Source: Escherichia phage vB_EcoP_SU7
Sequence record: NC_070980.1
Strand: one strand, 5' to 3'
Length of the DNA stretch: 64,000 nucleotides
Shown: piece by piece, positions 3,758 to 60,937 of the stretch
Position numbering within the stretch: the stretch's first letter is position 1
How the letters are laid out: every line of letters starts with the position of its first letter
Program-made: the position numbers and the translations under genes
The notes under the pieces: model-generated
What the model saw: the letters and a program-made list of their open reading frames with translations, nothing else
Database searches by the model: none
What the model was told of the DNA's origin: nothing

Positions 3758-6001
3758 ATGGCTAAGAAGAAATTTAGTGAAGATGTTTTGGATGAATTAC
3801 GCGTTGACCTTCAACGTCGATTCAATTATGCTCAAGGTTATGTAGACTTAGCTGTAAAAGGCTATGCTCGTGAGGCTTGGGAATACTTCTATGGGAACCT
3901 TCCTGCTCCAGTTACTGCTGGTAGCTCTAGTTGGGTAGACCGTACGGTATGGGAATCAGTGAATGGTACGCTCCAAGATATCATTAATGTGTTCTGTTCT
4001 GGTGACGAAGCGGTAACTTTCGTAGCCGATAACCAAGAAGATAGTGATGCTGCTGACGTAGCCACTAAACTTGTCAACCAAATTTTGTTACGTGATAATC
4101 CGGGATACAATATTATCTCTTCAGCGGCACAAGAGTGTCTGGTTACACGTAACTCTTTTATTAAATATTATTGGGATGAACAAACTTCTACCCAAACAGA
4201 AGAAGCAGAGGGTGTTCCTCCGGAAGCTTTGGCTGCATATGTCCAAGGTTTAGAAGCTGGTGGGCTTCAAGATTTAGAAATCTTTACCACTGACAACGAA
4301 GATGGTACAGTGGATGTTAAAGTAACTTACAAACAAACAGTAAAACGCGTTAAAGTAGAATATGTTCCTTCAGAACAGATTTTTGTTGACGAACATGCTA
4401 CCTCTTTTGCAGATGCTCAGTATTTCTGTCATCGCACACGTAAATCTAAAGAAGATCTGGTTGCTATGGGCTTCCCTAAAGATGAAATTGAAGCTTTTAA
4501 TGACTGGACTGATACAATGGACACCACTCAATCTACTGTTGCATGGTCACGTACTGACTGGCGTCAGGATATAGATTCAGATATCGGTGTAGACACTGAT
4601 GATATCGCTTCTATGGTTTGGGTTTACGAGCATTACATCCGTACTGGTGTACTGGATAAGAATAAAGAAGCAAAACTCTATCAAGTTATTCAAGCAGGTG
4701 AGCATATTCTCAGTTGTGAAGAAGTAACTAGCATTCCTTTTGTAACATTCTGCCCTTATCCTATTCCGGGTTCATTCTATGGACAATCTGTTTATGATAT
4801 CACCAAAGATATTCAGGATTTGCGTACCGCTTTGGTTCGTGGTTATATCGATAACGTAAACAATGCTAACTATGGTCGTTATAAGGCTCTTGTAGGTGCT
4901 TATGACCGTCGTTCTCTACTGGATAACCGTCCGGGTGGTGTAGTAGAAATGGAGCGTCAGGATGCGATTGATCTCTTCCCATACCATAATCTACCTCAAG
5001 GTATCGATGGCTTGCTGGGAATGTCTGATGAGTTGAAAGAAACTCGTACTGGTGTTACTAAACTCGGTATGGGTATTAACCCTGATGTGTTTAAGAATGA
5101 TAACGCATATGCAACTGTTGGATTGATGATGAATGCTGCTCAGAACCGTCTCCGTATGGTCTGTCGTAACATTGCTCACAACGGTATGGTTGAATTGATG
5201 CGTGGTATTTATAATTTAGTCCGAGAAAATGGTGAGGTTCCTTTACAAGTACAAACCCCTCGTGGTATGGTTCAGGTTCATCCTAAACAACTGCCTGCTC
5301 GTCACAATCTACAAGTTGTTGTAGCTATCTCTCCTAGCGAGAAATCAGAACGTGCCCAGAAACTAATCAGCCTGAAGCAATTGATTGCTGCTGATGCTCA
5401 GTTAGCACCTCTGTTCACTCTGGAGCAAGATCGTTATATGACTGCACAGATCTTCGAGTTGATGGGAATTAAAGACACTCACAAATACTTAATGCCTCTG
5501 GAACAGTATCAACCGCCAGAACCTTCTCCGATGGAAATCCTCCAGCTTGAGATGACTAAAGCACAGGTTGAGAACGTACAGGCTTCTTCTCAGAAGATGA
5601 TTGCTGATGCATTCGACCAGCGTGAACGTACTACGTTTGAACAGCAGAAAGCTGCGGATGAGTTCAGCTTGCGTCAAGAAGAACTGCAATTTAAGCAAGA
5701 GAATGCTGCTGATCAGATGACTTTGGAGAATCGTAAAGAAGACAACAGTGCTACACTTGAACAAGCTAAGCATAAGTTGGCTCTGCTCCAGCAACAGGTC
5801 CGTCAGTACGAATCTGTACTTAAAGAATTGCAGATGACTCTTAACCATCAGGTTGATGTTGAGAAAGTTGCAAATCAGGCTAAAATTCAAGATAAGACTT
5901 TGGAACTCCAAAAGAAAGAAGCAAATGAAACTAAGAAAGAACAGCAAAGTTCAATCAAAGATTCACGGATTCCTAACCGTCGTCTTGGTAGTAGAAAATA
6001 A
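3758..6001 (+). CDS. Portal protein
   Basis: 747-aa ORF directly after the large terminase, strong SD, C-terminal coiled-coil/charged tail; assignment by position and size. Confidence 0.65.
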   Translation: MAKKKFSEDVLDELRVDLQRRFNYAQGYVDLAVKGYAREAWEYFYGNLPAPVTAGSSSWVDRTVWESVNGTLQDIINVFCSGDEAVTFVADNQEDSDAADVATKLVNQILLRDNPGYNIISSAAQECLVTRNSFIKYYWDEQTSTQTEEAEGVPPEALAAYVQGLEAGGLQDLEIFTTDNEDGTVDVKVTYKQTVKRVKVEYVPSEQIFVDEHATSFADAQYFCHRTRKSKEDLVAMGFPKDEIEAFNDWTDTMDTTQSTVAWSRTDWRQDIDSDIGVDTDDIASMVWVYEHYIRTGVLDKNKEAKLYQVIQAGEHILSCEEVTSIPFVTFCPYPIPGSFYGQSVYDITKDIQDLRTALVRGYIDNVNNANYGRYKALVGAYDRRSLLDNRPGGVVEMERQDAIDLFPYHNLPQGIDGLLGMSDELKETRTGVTKLGMGINPDVFKNDNAYATVGLMMNAAQNRLRMVCRNIAHNGMVELMRGIYNLVRENGEVPLQVQTPRGMVQVHPKQLPARHNLQVVVAISPSEKSERAQKLISLKQLIAADAQLAPLFTLEQDRYMTAQIFELMGIKDTHKYLMPLEQYQPPEPSPMEILQLEMTKAQVENVQASSQKMIADAFDQRERTTFEQQKAADEFSLRQEELQFKQENAADQMTLENRKEDNSATLEQAKHKLALLQQQVRQYESVLKELQMTLNHQVDVEKVANQAKIQDKTLELQKKEANETKKEQQSSIKDSRIPNRRLGSRK

Positions 6002-6010
6002 GGATACTGA

Positions 6011-6247
6011 ATGAATACAAGACAGCAATTCAATAAAGAGCACGCCGCCGCTTTGGCGGCTCTCAATCACAACGGCATTCTTGACGCAGCATTAGAGGCA
6101 TTAAAAGAAACCCTCATGAGAGATATCGTATTAACCGAGGCTCATGAGAATAAGAAACGCGAAGAGTGTTATCAAAAGTATAAAATGGTTGGTAGCTTAA
6201 AAGAGGTCATAAAAGCTGCTATCAATAATGCAGGAGATATTTCCTAA
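6011..6247 (+). CDS. Hypothetical small protein
   Basis: 78-aa ORF with AAGGA SD between portal and scaffold. Confidence 0.4.
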   Translation: MNTRQQFNKEHAAALAALNHNGILDAALEALKETLMRDIVLTEAHENKKREECYQKYKMVGSLKEVIKAAINNAGDIS

Positions 6248-55816: not shown

Positions 55817-57850
55817 TTAGTGTTTACCTTTACAGTAATCTGAATTACAGATCACCCTGTTTTCTTTGTTCAGTGAGCAAGTTTCTGCATCACGCCACGG
55901 AATTTGTTTATAACAGACTGCACAAAACCCAATTGAAGTCCAGAGGGCTTTTGTGAACTCGGCTGTTCGTTGTCCATCATAGCTGACAACTGTTTTTCGG
56001 AGAGAGGTTGACTTTTTTGGAAATGTCTCCGCTTTCTCAGCGGGTACCTCCTTTGGGGAATTCTTTGGACCATAAACAGAGATGGCATAAGTATCACCAC
56101 CACGTTTTTCCAAATACGAATTAGGAACATCTGCAAGTGTAATATCCCCTGAACGTTTTGCTGAGCTAACCATTACGATCATACGGCTAAGCATACGTTC
56201 ATCAACACGAACAGCTACTTCAGGACGACGTGGGTTGGTTGTGTCTACTGCTTTAGTCCAAATATAACCCTCAGATAGAGTAACATTCTTTACTTTATCT
56301 TTGATTTCTTTGGAGCAGATATAACAAACATCTTCACCACGAAGTTTACTCATTTCGTTGTCAAACTCGAAATCAGTCTTGACTTCACCACAGACAGCAC
56401 ATACGCCCAAAGGCACATCTTCTTCATCTTCAGAGATTTTAGATAACGCTTCGAAGCATTCTGGATGCCAGTATGCTTGATAAGCAAACACAGCCTTACG
56501 AGCATCTTTCCAGTCAATGTGCTTATCACAACCACCACAATCACCATGAGAGTGAGATTCCCAGAACTTACGAGTGACTTCTACACCATTTTTAGTGATG
56601 AAGGAGTCCTCTGCATCAAAAGGGATGTCATCATCAAAATCAGCAGTAGTGCTTTGAGGCTCCTTATCTGTAGCATCAACAAACAGCCCTGAAGTTAGTA
56701 CGAGGCGAATCATACTGTCCACTTCGGAGATACAAGCAATCGTCCCGCGATATACTACCTTTGGGTTTTCAAGAGCCTTAAGATATTCATCTTTGGCTAC
56801 GTTGTGAACATCCCCTTCGACATACTCTTGGGCTTTATCGTCGTAGATGTAACCAATCATCTTACCACGATCTGTGTTGTTATAAGCATGGAACTCGTGA
56901 GGAATAATATCCACACGACCATCACGACGATAAGGAAGACCACGATCGGCAGCCAGTTTGTTCTGGTCTTCAATCGCTTTACGACGACGAATGTCTCCGC
57001 TTGTCACGCCGGGCTTGTCGTCTTTGTTTCCGTAAATGTCGCTTGTGCTGCTGCTTGATTTGTTTGTCTGTTGGTTCTGATATAGAGAGGAGTTCGAGTA
57101 ATAGCCGCCCCAGCGACTCGTTATCGTAAAAACCGGAAGCTTGTGCTCCACCTCTTGAACCAGAGTCATACGACTGTTAGACACATCAAAGATATACTCA
57201 GTTCCCACTTTACATTCGAAGTGGTCATTGATACGGTTCTTGTGGGATTTAGAACGCTCTAAAATCCACATAAGCATAGCTTCTTCAGAAGCCCCAAACC
57301 AATCTAAACCACAACGGGCTAGGTGGAAAGGACGCTCATCATTACGGATAATGTGAAGCGTGTTGTCTTTAGCATCATGCCAAATCAAAGTGAATGCACC
57401 ATCCAGTTTTTGGATAGTCTCTGCTGCTCCAATGGTATTAATTGAGTGGCAGATGTTTTCACTATCAACTTCGAAACGCTTACTGTCAGGAAGGAGATCT
57501 TGATCTAACAGGGTTCCATTATGAACCAGAGTAATATCCCCGTGAGTAAATGGGTGAGCATTTCGAGCATTGACAGCCCCACGAGTGGCATGTCGGCTGT
57601 GACCAACAATCCACGAAGGAGGAACTACGTAGTTCGTAAGCCCTTTGGTAATATTTGTATATTCTGTCTGGAGCATAAAAGCATAAGAAGGAAGAGCTTC
57701 TTTATAAGAGAAGACTTGCTTTTCACCTTTACGCTGACCAAACACACCAGTTGAGTGCTGTCCACGGAAAACACCAGCATACAGAAGTTGGTTGAAAATA
57801 TCCAAATCTGTTGAGGTCATGTTGCCGCCAGCTAATACGATACCACAAAT
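55817..57850 (-). CDS. Class II (Ntn-type) glutamine amidotransferase with C-terminal Cys-rich domain; predicted AUU start
   Basis: In-frame upstream of the track ATG (57820) the sequence reads TAG AAA ATT TGT GGT ATC = stop-K-I-C-G-I-V, i.e. the conserved (M)CGIV nucleophile; the only start placing Cys at position 2 is ATT 57848-57850, with AGGTGG SD 8 nt upstream. Downstream RGQHSTGV, GHSRHATRG, NAHPF, HNG motifs. Confidence 0.6.
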   Translation of the reverse strand: MCGIVLAGGNMTSTDLDIFNQLLYAGVFRGQHSTGVFGQRKGEKQVFSYKEALPSYAFMLQTEYTNITKGLTNYVVPPSWIVGHSRHATRGAVNARNAHPFTHGDITLVHNGTLLDQDLLPDSKRFEVDSENICHSINTIGAAETIQKLDGAFTLIWHDAKDNTLHIIRNDERPFHLARCGLDWFGASEEAMLMWILERSKSHKNRINDHFECKVGTEYIFDVSNSRMTLVQEVEHKLPVFTITSRWGGYYSNSSLYQNQQTNKSSSSTSDIYGNKDDKPGVTSGDIRRRKAIEDQNKLAADRGLPYRRDGRVDIIPHEFHAYNNTDRGKMIGYIYDDKAQEYVEGDVHNVAKDEYLKALENPKVVYRGTIACISEVDSMIRLVLTSGLFVDATDKEPQSTTADFDDDIPFDAEDSFITKNGVEVTRKFWESHSHGDCGGCDKHIDWKDARKAVFAYQAYWHPECFEALSKISEDEEDVPLGVCAVCGEVKTDFEFDNEMSKLRGEDVCYICSKEIKDKVKNVTLSEGYIWTKAVDTTNPRRPEVAVRVDERMLSRMIVMVSSAKRSGDITLADVPNSYLEKRGGDTYAISVYGPKNSPKEVPAEKAETFPKKSTSLRKTVVSYDGQRTAEFTKALWTSIGFCAVCYKQIPWRDAETCSLNKENRVICNSDYCKGKH

Positions 57851-57927
57851 TTTCTAATCCACCTGAAGGGTAAACCCTTTCATCTAATTAACCTTTAAAT
57901 GCGCCCTTTATCAGAGCGCCCATTGTG

Positions 57928-59028
57928 TTACAGCAGTCGTTCTAATTGCATTTCCAGATGGTCTGGAATGTAATCAGTGATGTTATTATCACTGCTACCT
58001 GATTCACGCATCAGAGCAAACATGTGACGAATTTCACGAACCGTTGCGATTCGAGTGCTTTCAATCTGAGGGGTGTAGTAGGTCATGATCTCTTCATAGA
58101 CAGTGTTGGCATTACCGCGCACATATCCCAAGAAACCATAGAAGTCATTCATATCACGTAAGTTGATAAGGACTTCACCATCAGGGCCAGTCTGTTGCAC
58201 ACGAACACGACCAACCAAAGTTACAGATTGCTCACGACAGAACAGAATATCACGAGCAAGACGATACCCTTCAGTGAGATCACTGTCTCTTGGAGTATAG
58301 TCTAGGGGTAGATGTTGAATCATAGGAGCGAAGCGCAGCTCATTCAACTTCTCAACATAAGCTTCATTGTCTAAATCTGCATATTCAACAGCCAGTTTCT
58401 TGAGAACCAAGAAGCGGTTGACCAGATTCAGAAGTTGGCTCTTTTTCCACTTCGGCTCTGAGATACGGAACTCAACAGAACCAAATTGAGATAGAGGCAA
58501 AAGATTAAGGGAGGTATATTTATCCCAGCTATTAACAAGAGAGTGGAAGAAAGCTTCCCCGTCTCGGTTGAACGCTGACGAAGCATTCATAACTTGTGCT
58601 TGAACGACAGCAAAAGCTGGACAGAAGTTGCTACGATAGCGATGGTATCCAGAACATTTGAACATCATCTTTTCATAGAACGTCCATCCAAGAATAACTT
58701 TCTTAAGGATATTACTATCAGCGTCACGCATATCCATATGAACGTGAGTGGAACAGCGCCAAGTTCCCTCGGCTCCAGAATCCTGTACTGCTTCACTCAG
58801 ATTGTTAATAGCACGAAGTAATTCTTCACCGTTGTAAGGTCGTGCACATACTAATTCACAACCATCACGAAGAGAGCCATCTTCAGTACAAACCCACATA
58901 TCAGCGTCAATGTTAGTTGTACCTTCGACTTCTAACTCAATACCAACACCACACTGAAAAGCAATACTTGGATGCGGTTCAGATAAGCGAGGGTTACGGT
59001 ATCCAAAAACTTGTGCTACGGTTGTCAT
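57928..59028 (-). CDS. Amidoligase-like (glutamine-synthetase-like carboxylate-amine ligase) protein
   Basis: GVGIELEVEG and CSTHVHMD motifs resembling phage amidoligase families. Confidence 0.45.
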   Translation of the reverse strand: MTTVAQVFGYRNPRLSEPHPSIAFQCGVGIELEVEGTTNIDADMWVCTEDGSLRDGCELVCARPYNGEELLRAINNLSEAVQDSGAEGTWRCSTHVHMDMRDADSNILKKVILGWTFYEKMMFKCSGYHRYRSNFCPAFAVVQAQVMNASSAFNRDGEAFFHSLVNSWDKYTSLNLLPLSQFGSVEFRISEPKWKKSQLLNLVNRFLVLKKLAVEYADLDNEAYVEKLNELRFAPMIQHLPLDYTPRDSDLTEGYRLARDILFCREQSVTLVGRVRVQQTGPDGEVLINLRDMNDFYGFLGYVRGNANTVYEEIMTYYTPQIESTRIATVREIRHMFALMRESGSSDNNITDYIPDHLEMQLERLL

Positions 59029-59660: not shown

Positions 59661-60470
59661 TTATACAATCTGGAGTTTAGAGGAGAATTTATCCGCTTCT
59701 TTAACATCGTTACTGTTGATGATGTTGTGAAGCTTTTCAATTGGAAGGCGAGAGTGAAGTGACATCAATACTTCCATATCACAGCCTTGAACAACCTTAT
59801 CAACTTGCTCATAAACAAACTTGCGGGTTGACTTCTCGCCAATCCAGAAGTTAGAAAGAGAACGATATTCAATACCGTAATCTTTGTAGCGAATGGCAGA
59901 AGCCTTTCCGTATAACTCTTTACGACGAGTATCTTTATCCATGATCACAGCTGGCAAGGACAGGAAGTAATCACACAACACACCTAACATCATTTGAGTC
60001 TGACGACTAATTTCCAGCGTACCAGTGACGCCAAGGTGAACATGACCACCAGCAGTACGCAGACCTTTGTCTGTCGCTACTGGAGATGGGTTTTTCTGAC
60101 CAGTGAAGGCGTTGAAATCAGGAGTACAACCAAATACAAAGGCTGACGGATGGAAAGATTCCATCTCTTCTGAAGTGAACACATGAGAGCTAATCCCAAG
60201 TGCTGCCTCCATGCCACGTTCATTGAGAACTTTGTTAGTCAGATCAATACCACGCTGAATGTTATCATTAAACGCTTCAAACCCTTTCTGTGGGTTAATA
60301 TCGAACTCGGCCAGAACGTTGTCTTCTTGAAGACGAACATCAGGGGCCAGATCAATTTTGTTGTCTTTAGAGCAGCCCAGCTTACCAGCCACAGAGGTGA
60401 TAATACCAGAAGCAGTACGAACAAACATTTCCGGATCCGACCCTATTAAGAATTTACGTTTAGTAGTCAT
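59661..60470 (-). CDS. Second amidoligase-like / carboxylate-amine ligase protein
   Basis: IGSDPEMFV (acidic ligase-type N-terminal motif) and AGGHVHLGV motif; divergent paralogue-like. Confidence 0.4.
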   Translation of the reverse strand: MTTKRKFLIGSDPEMFVRTASGIITSVAGKLGCSKDNKIDLAPDVRLQEDNVLAEFDINPQKGFEAFNDNIQRGIDLTNKVLNERGMEAALGISSHVFTSEEMESFHPSAFVFGCTPDFNAFTGQKNPSPVATDKGLRTAGGHVHLGVTGTLEISRQTQMMLGVLCDYFLSLPAVIMDKDTRRKELYGKASAIRYKDYGIEYRSLSNFWIGEKSTRKFVYEQVDKVVQGCDMEVLMSLHSRLPIEKLHNIINSNDVKEADKFSSKLQIV

Positions 60471-60937
60471 GCTTTAGTCCAACCTTTATGAGATAGATAG
60501 TTTTTAAATCTGCCACTGTGCACAGCGCCCATGTGGCCTTGATGTAAGTCGTTGCTTCTACAGAAGTCTTTAAGATTGTATATTGTTACAACCTCGCCAT
60601 CTGGAGATCTAAACTTCCAAAATCTAGCATTCCCTTTCACAGCGTTTTCTTCACTGGTCAGAAGTTGGAAATTACTTGGGTGGTTATTAAGTTTATCGCC
60701 ATCGATGTGATCAACAGTCATACCATCCGGAATAGGCCCAATAAACAATTCATACATAAGTCTATGTAATAAAAAGTTCCTTGTTATCTTTTCAGGAGCC
60801 TGAACTGTTGTAAACTTAAGATAACCATCTTTATCAGGAAACAGTTTCCTCTGTTTCCCTGTTCTTGCATGGAATATACTACCGTCTTCGAACACCAAGA
60901 AGGTAGCAACTCCGACTACTAACTCCCTAAATTCCAT
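60467..60937 (-). CDS. HNH endonuclease (inserted within the ligase cluster)
   Basis: VDHIDGDKLNNHPSNFQLLTSEENAVKGN HNH_3 motif. Confidence 0.65.
   Translation of the reverse strand: MEFRELVVGVATFLVFEDGSIFHARTGKQRKLFPDKDGYLKFTTVQAPEKITRNFLLHRLMYELFIGPIPDGMTVDHIDGDKLNNHPSNFQLLTSEENAVKGNARFWKFRSPDGEVVTIYNLKDFCRSNDLHQGHMGAVHSGRFKNYLSHKGWTKA

Follow-up and report, generated by a model that had tools for sequence, protein, structure and literature searches.

In the class-II (N-terminal nucleophile, Ntn) glutamine amidotransferases, the nucleophilic Cys must be the N-terminal residue of the protein. Here, the start of a gene encoding such an enzyme is analyzed in a 64,000-nt stretch of DNA of Escherichia phage vB_EcoP_SU7 (NC_070980.1; hereafter, the window), in which translation very probably begins at an AUU codon placed directly before the Cys codon. 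E. coli has two AUU starts, infC and pcnB (PMC5499595), and for infC the AUU/AUC start with IF3 discrimination is established (PMC5499595). AUU and AUC starts are discriminated by IF3 and respond to temperature, nutrient state and ppGpp, and AUU initiation reached about 1-2% of that from AUG in reporter assays (PMC5499595). As in infC and pcnB, the phage gene has a near-cognate AUU/AUC codon as its apparent sole start, and this codon is phylogenetically conserved; in infC, it is decoded by the initiator tRNA under IF3 discrimination (PMC5499595). The window belongs to a phiEco32-like E. coli podophage (Gordonclarkvirinae), for which 95 related records are deposited, and the region is 99.7% identical to that of vB_EcoP_PAS59. 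The order of genes in the window (COOH-NH2 ligase, PHROG 4877 protein, amidoligase, glutamine amidotransferase (GATase)) matches the phiEco32-type amidoligase/COOH-NH2 ligase/GATase cluster, with no difference in gene content, and the start codon feature is absent from the descriptions of this cluster in the literature searched.

The domain models place the amidotransferase protein in class II (Pfam GATase_6, E=2.7e-14, 53.7 bits against a cutoff of 27; GATase_7, 25.1 bits against a cutoff of 25), as does the Cys predicted to follow the initiator Met. The protein also matches PHROG 4736 (E=1.7e-183), with position 2 of the profile aligned to residue 2 of the ATT-initiated protein. A single-sequence PDB search with the protein gave no hits; the structural matches came from a profile search, with E about 2e-23 to 3e-22 for GlmS and about 1e-15 for PurF. 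In these, the Cys of the family profile falls on the first residue of mature E. coli GlmS (1xff, E=3e-22) and on Cys1 of PurF (1ecb), so it would be the Ntn nucleophile, needing the N-terminal position. Invariant residues in the profile (37 members) include C2, G3, R29, G30, H84, R86, H110-N111-G112 and D129-S130. Like GlmS, PurF and AsnB, the protein has a glutaminase domain (the N-terminal ~240 aa) with the Cys1, Arg, Asn-Gly and Asp motifs; unlike them, it has no isomerase, PRTase or synthetase domain, having instead a Cys-rich C-terminal region of ~430 aa. The database name L-glutamine-D-fructose-6-phosphate aminotransferase is not justified for it.

All coordinates of the amidotransferase gene are window positions on the minus strand, read 5'->3'. 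Between 57883 and 57818, an upstream open reading frame (uORF) of nine codons and its TAG (Table 1) are followed by AAA ATT TGT GGT ATC GTA TTA GCT GGC GGC AAC ATG, and the translation across the start site is *-K-I-C-G-I-V-L-A-G-G-N-M. The order of the elements is AGGTGG-ATTAGAAA-ATT-TGT-GGT-ATC-GTA, with only AAA and ATT between the in-frame TAG and the Cys codon. The TAG, two codons ahead of the Cys, ends the frame on that side and so rules out an N-terminal extension. The preliminary description had proposed the ATT start from the C-G-I-V found in frame upstream of the first ATG, the stop-AAA-ATT preceding it and the AGGTGG Shine-Dalgarno (SD) sequence 8 nt upstream of the ATT; all of these were found in place, and the string TAG-AAA-ATT-TGT leaves ATT as the only codon that gives Cys at position 2. 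The mechanical list of open reading frames (ORFs) includes a 667-aa ORF begun at the ATG at 57820. Judged from sequence, the site shows what is expected of AUU/AUC initiation, that is, a sole compatible position without an upstream canonical alternative, an SD at functional spacing and phylogenetic conservation. A matching spacer, AGGAGGATTAGAAA-ATT, is present in an unrelated homologous locus (L151; L numbers denote homologous loci).

Conservation within the group was compared in 21 records, corresponding to 13 distinct haplotypes that are 72-99% identical outside an invariant block. The ATT shows no variation (13/13 haplotypes), and the string TAG-AAA-ATT-TGT, including its stop, is identical at every phiEco32-like locus read. 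Codons 3, 7, 8 and 9, located between the ATT and the downstream ATG, vary only synonymously, which indicates that the stretch upstream of the first ATG is protein-coding. Codon 11, the first ATG, is Met in 5 of the 13 haplotypes and Leu in the other 8; in the genera that have no such ATG (Kuravirus and Nieuwekanaalvirus records), a canonical in-frame start is not reached until 26-114 codons downstream, within the glutaminase domain. When 11 distinct phages were aligned over 1.8 kb, the 55 nt around the ATT formed the longest invariant run, the next longest being 15 nt. Over the 71-nt start region, identity stays at 95% or above in every one of the 95 deposited genomes, 73 of which are only 60-80% identical over the gene. 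This conservation of the ATT and its surroundings across independent phages excludes a sequencing error or a pseudogene; an error creating the upstream stop, which the preliminary description had named as a way in which its proposal could fail, was not found. The 55-nt block stays invariant where the flanking genes fall to 72% identity.

Alignment with homologues, also suggested in that description, gave the same picture, with ~40 of 49 protein homologues beginning M-C-G-[ILV] and their Cys aligning with Cys1 of GlmS and PurF. Three homologue clusters have extended called N-termini, and in all three Ile precedes the Cys; the DNA at these starts reads AGGAGG-ATAAACCC-ATT-TGT (L008), AGGAGG-ATAGTACC-ATT-TGC (L010) and AGGTGA-CTAAA-ATT-TGT (L007). 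The arrangement AGGAGG-N8-ATT-TGY is thus present in the deeply diverged L008 and L010, with a like arrangement in L042, L059 and L062 and, with ATC, in L056 and L061. In L008, the upstream ATG extension chosen by the caller overlaps the preceding gene by 62 nt, and the stop of that gene lies 4 nt before the ATT. A canonical in-frame start between the upstream stop and the Cys is lacking in five of nine non-ATG representatives (including L042, L059, L061 and L062), which excludes a propeptide as a general explanation; such starts do exist in L007 and L010, at 3 and 10 codons upstream, with no stop between.

A census of 80 viral-contig loci, retrieved by an internal peptide pattern and thus neutral to the start codon, gave ATG (69), ATT (8), ATC (2) and TTG (1) as the codon before the Cys, so that ~12% (10/80) is an unbiased estimate of the ATT/ATC share among viral homologues. 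Among further representatives, ATT or ATC precedes the Cys in 24 of 89; this 27% is not an unbiased frequency, because these replication scans were centered on ATT/ATC clades. AUA was never seen before the Cys in the census or the further representatives, AUU and AUC being the only members of the AUN-Ile set found. On a neighbor-joining tree of the first sample, non-ATG starts appear in no fewer than five distinct lineages and are retained within the deep clades L008/L010 and L056/L059/L061, and Fitch parsimony on the pooled set (151 representatives; simple neighbor-joining tree) requires at least 26 changes between ATG and ATT/ATC. Initiation at a UUG or GUG embedded in AUUUGUGG was rejected, since ATC-TGC members lack those triplets. 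Two metagenomic phages, L149 (ATT) and L148 (ATG), have 99%-identical proteins and N-termini with unrelated upstream DNA and a breakpoint at the start codon (positions 480-720 of each locus), which suggests that the upstream region and the start codon move jointly as a module. Tandem near-cognate codons, ATY-ATY-TGY, were observed in 12 of 33 ATT/ATC representatives (e.g., L118, L128, L131, L146, L149, L103 and L100), and ATY precedes ATG in 12 of 111; a start at the first codon of the tandem would yield Met-Ile-Cys, burying the nucleophile.

The ATT/ATC loci differ from the ATG loci in their upstream sequence as well. The mean energy of the anti-SD duplex is -8.27 kcal/mol in ATT/ATC loci vs -6.62 kcal/mol in ATG loci (Mann-Whitney p=5e-5). 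The ATT/ATC loci also usually have a compact hairpin (stem of 4-7 bp, loop of 3-6 nt) whose 3' end abuts the SD, with stem sequences that differ by lineage (AAGGG/CCCUU in the window, GACGG/CCGUC in L010, GCUGC/GCAGC in L008, GCCCU/AGGGC in L059, AAUGC/GCAUU in L062 and GACUAAU/AUUAGUC in L042). With a hairpin defined as dG <= -2.5 kcal/mol and a 3' end between -22 and -13, it was found in 7/9 ATT/ATC vs 4/53 ATG loci of the discovery set (Fisher p=2e-5) and in 12/24 vs 1/58 of the replication set of 89 new representatives (Fisher p=3.6e-7; Mann-Whitney on dG p=3.5e-8). In 26 edge-disjoint sister contrasts, the hairpin was present only in the ATT/ATC partner in 15 and only in the ATG partner in 2 (sign test p=0.0012; Wilcoxon p=1.7e-4). 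A sub-clade with GGAGAUUUUAUY-AUU has no abutting hairpin.

Here it is proposed that the 30S subunit would be positioned by the AGGUGG SD and that the initiator fMet-tRNA would pair with the near-cognate AUU at 57850-57848. The fMet would then be taken off by deformylase and methionine aminopeptidase, Cys being a permitted second residue, which would leave Cys1 as the free N-terminal nucleophile; the expected N-terminal peptide is CGIVLAGGNMTSTDLDIFNQLLYAGVFR. Comparison with relatives strongly favors the start foreseen in the preliminary description, since what it predicts on homologue alignment, conservation, coding selection, a non-conserved ATG and caller mis-starts held. A single T->G change would give a strong start, yet the ATT is unchanged in 95 genomes and ATT/ATC is kept in deep clades, which argues for selection for weak or conditional initiation rather than drift. 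The AUU may therefore be a deliberately maintained weak start, discriminated by IF3, and not a defect, its likely function being low or IF3-sensitive expression. Together with the AUU, the hairpin and the 9-codon uORF of the same 55-nt block would most likely hold the enzyme at a level that is low, or dependent on the state of the host, compared with the upstream-encoded amidoligases, and plausible selective reasons would be to keep a glutamine-hydrolyzing enzyme at catalytic levels against these or to tie it to host physiology. A strong SD and hairpin may compensate for the weak start by lengthening the stay of the 30S subunit or by preventing pairing of the SD.

Several points weigh against these proposals. 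With AUU at about 1-2% of AUG (PMC5499595), the yield of the amidotransferase could be very low, and the SD of the window is itself only moderate (-5.9 kcal/mol). The local fold of the window is not thermodynamically unusual (z=-0.49), so that the case for the hairpin is a comparative one; its criterion was set after inspecting the first sample, and then frozen and replicated, and 9 of the 26 sister contrasts have the hairpin in neither partner. The AUU start across the family likewise rests on comparison. The amidotransferase protein was detected in the proteomics of SU10 infection (9 peptides, 23.7% coverage) among the early gene products (PMC4281155); the entry used in that search, of 63.8 kDa, corresponds to a start 114 codons downstream, which places the N-terminus outside the test, and no peptide lists were found in the supplements.

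Among other explanations, translation from the first ATG (57820-57818) would give a product without Cys1, glutaminase-dead and acting via its other domains. ORF callers and 12 of 16 database records do choose a downstream canonical start, and ATG is far more efficient than ATT (PMC5499595), but the variable codon 11, with no SD before it, and the nine codons upstream of it, conserved at the protein level, make this reading improbable; the intact glutaminase motifs (R-G, HNG, D-S) argue for an active enzyme, and in the other genera the nearest canonical start would remove 26-114 residues of the domain. Decay of the start in a pseudogene, or an artefact, would need only a single-base change from ATG to ATT and could find favor in the many records that annotate a truncated protein. 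It is effectively refuted by the conservation data, the ATT being identical in each of the independently sequenced phages read and the region being kept in all 95 records, and it is further opposed by the intact 677-codon frame under strong purifying selection, the detection of the protein by mass spectrometry in SU10 and the recurrence of ATT/ATC with strong SDs in distant lineages; the chance left to it is close to nil. Only slightly less remote is a propeptide, made from the upstream ATG at 57883 by read-through of the TAG and self-processed to expose the Cys. PurF of Bacillus subtilis is made with a self-processed propeptide, and the in-frame 9-codon ORF before the TAG would give a leader of 12 residues, about the size of known Ntn propeptides; the uninterrupted upstream starts of L007 and L010 would also suit it. 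Against this stand the need for amber read-through in ordinary E. coli hosts at an invariant TAG, the five of nine ATT/ATC lineages with no canonical in-frame start upstream, the L008 extension that runs into the preceding gene and the fact that SD-N7/8-ATY-TGY, and not a leader peptide, is common to all lineages. A continuous in-frame leader from a canonical start to the Cys, as in PurF-type autoprocessing, was thus rejected for the window, in which the invariant TAG lies two codons before the Cys.

The alternative with most in its favor keeps the AUU codon and changes its route of use. The uORF would be translated, melting the hairpin, and ribosomes terminating at the UAG 3 nt before the AUU would restart there, so that the uORF rather than free 30S binding would drive expression. 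An AAGG precedes the ATG of the uORF by 8 nt, and the uORF runs across both hairpin and SD to end 3 nt short of the ATT (stop at -6); the whole uORF lies inside the invariant block, whose 5' edge is 2 nt upstream of this SD-like AAGG, and the classic coupled arrangement is seen in L008 and L062, where a long gene upstream has its stop at -7. Opposed to this, a stop in the spacer is no commoner in ATT/ATC (23/33) than in ATG loci (79/111), in four of nine lineages (L010, L056, L059 and L061) no ORF ends in the 40 nt that precede the start, the upstream ORFs of L042 end further away (at -27 and -35) and the sequence of the uORF is invariant, so that its coding constraint is not assessable. As the main route to the AUU, re-initiation is rather unlikely, whereas as a contributing route in the phiEco32 group it is credible; it is not general in the family. 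Two features were rejected as general to ATT/ATC loci on these grounds: the spacer stop, by the counts just given, and the uORF, because a short in-frame uORF near the start was found only in the window and in L062, that of L042 ending further upstream.

The invariant block was also compared with known elements. The Rfam covariance search gave no cis-regulatory RNA family to explain it; the one hit, below threshold and on the other strand (18.4 bits, gathering score 44), is ascribed to chance. The middle/late promoters of the phiEco32 gp36 sigma factor have the consensus tAATGTAtA, 6-8 bp upstream of the transcription start (PMC8948821); such a promoter was rejected as well, since the block reads TAAAGGTTAATTAG, a poor match to it (PMC8948821). 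The 23-nt 5' part of the block occurs once in the window, and window positions 57600-58100 yielded neither a sigma-70-like promoter nor an intrinsic terminator. In ATG-starting relatives from phages of 82-92 kb (L018-L022), TTTAAATGTAAA(A/T)T, which resembles the gp36 element, is located ~15-25 nt upstream of the ATG-TGT. The phiEco32 group has TTTAAAGGTTAATT at the homologous position, possibly a degenerated or altered promoter.

The AUU start is not new as an annotation; it is present in some databases and unrecognized in most. Coding sequences (CDS) are already drawn from the ATT in phiEco32 (phi32_83; NC_010324, 54493..56523 complement; 2008), SU10 (SU10_085; KM044272) and the BASEL phages (Bas87_0079 and Bas88_0074), these records carrying no note or experimental support for the start. 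In 12 of 16 GenBank/RefSeq records checked (PAS59, EK010, ECBP2, EP335, IME267, HC-25922, 4E8, KBNP1711, ev_rybdy3, Ptacy1532, O18-011 and MN05), the gene starts 10-114 codons downstream of the ATT, as had been expected of automated callers. Three-quarters of the records checked thus encode an N-terminally truncated protein without the nucleophile, an error that pipelines will propagate and that may wrongly imply an inactive enzyme. No paper commenting on the AUU codon was found in the literature searched, which left out the phiEco32 genome paper (Savalia et al. 2008). For the single gene, this is a further, partly annotated case in the known class of AUU-initiated genes; the recurrent use of AUU/AUC across the family and its coupling to a hairpin-SD module appear to be undescribed.

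Compared with infC, the amidotransferase family shares the restriction to AUU and AUC, never AUA. Unlike infC, it encodes a metabolic enzyme of phages rather than a translation factor, which leaves no evident autoregulatory loop, and only a minority of its members use AUU/AUC, with frequent switching with AUG (at least 26 changes). For infC, no account of a link to an SD-abutting hairpin was found in the literature searched. More tentatively, and as a possibility that falls short of being probable, AUU/AUC, a strong SD and an SD-abutting hairpin may form a distinct, recurrently evolved initiation module of phage Ntn-amidotransferase genes, toggled with AUG starts, sometimes by recombination exactly at the start codon, and making synthesis depend on the translational state of the host (IF3 level, ppGpp, temperature), as in infC. 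AUU starts are extremely rare, yet this family uses AUU/AUC in about one-eighth of its loci and keeps the codon unchanged across 95 coliphage genomes. If the module reading is true, this would be the second gene family after infC with systematic use of AUU/AUC and a natural experiment on the compensation of weak starts. A functional module would also be a tractable natural system in which to study the compensation of weak start codons or their regulatory use, and would reveal how phages control the amount of a glutamine-hydrolyzing enzyme that may be costly.

Table 1. Features of the amidotransferase locus and its neighbors (window positions).
Feature	Position	Strand	Basis and remarks
Amidotransferase CDS, counted from ATT	55817..57850	-	677 codons and stop; ORF list, Pfam, PHROG 4736, matching starts in phiEco32/SU10/BASEL records
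First in-frame ATG, codon 11	57818..57820	-	Chosen by ORF callers; most likely an internal Met codon; no SD before it
Invariant block	57843..57897	-	55 nt, -47 to +7 relative to ATT; most conserved stretch of the locus among phiEco32-like phages
TGT, predicted catalytic N-terminal Cys (Cys1 after Met removal)	57845..57847	-	Invariant alignment column C2; aligns to Cys1 of GlmS 1xff and PurF 1ecb
ATT (AUU), proposed non-canonical initiation codon	57848..57850	-	Sole codon able to put Cys at position 2; invariant in 13 haplotypes
Spacer ATTAGAAA	57851..57858	-	Holds in-frame stop TAG (57856-57854), then AAA (57853-57851)
uORF MKGFTLQVD*	57854..57883	-	Nine codons (ATG AAA GGG TTT ACC CTT CAG GTG GAT TAG); in frame with the amidotransferase gene
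SD AGGTGG	57859..57864	-	8 nt upstream of ATT; invariant; anti-SD duplex -5.9 kcal/mol
Hairpin AAGGG-UUUA-CCCUU	57866..57879	-	Extendable to 57864-57882; ends 1 nt before SD; RNA folds, isolated hairpin -4.6 kcal/mol
Amidoligase (Amidoligase_2), upstream neighbor	57928..59028	-	Pfam PF12224; PHROG 7469, E=2.9e-142
phiEco32-type COOH-NH2 ligase	59661..60470	-	Pfam PF14395; PHROG 3815, E=9.8e-113

The C-terminal ~430 aa of the amidotransferase protein gave no Pfam match above threshold. This region (window 55817-57100, minus strand) contains several CxxC pairs and a sub-threshold LIM-like match (E=0.02), and the homologues outside the phiEco32 group, of ~400 aa, likewise end in CxxC...CxxC.

Just past the stop codon of the amidoligase gene (window 57901-57919, minus strand), there is a stem-loop, GCGCUCU-GAUAA-AGGGCGC followed by AUUU, that was not called by the terminator scan; EP335 has a different sequence at this position (GUGCC...GGCAC), which suggests a conserved structure. 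An ORF of 156 aa matching HNH_3 endonucleases (E=2.9e-17; window 60467-60937, minus strand) directly precedes the COOH-NH2 ligase gene, with 4 nt of overlap at the start of the latter, and probably represents a homing endonuclease that has entered the amidoligase cluster. The distant ATT-starting locus L010 has the COOH-NH2 ligase upstream and, two genes downstream of the amidotransferase, a GGACT (gamma-glutamyl cyclotransferase-like) gene at 5631-6014, a gene set consistent with a peptide or gamma-glutamyl modification pathway.

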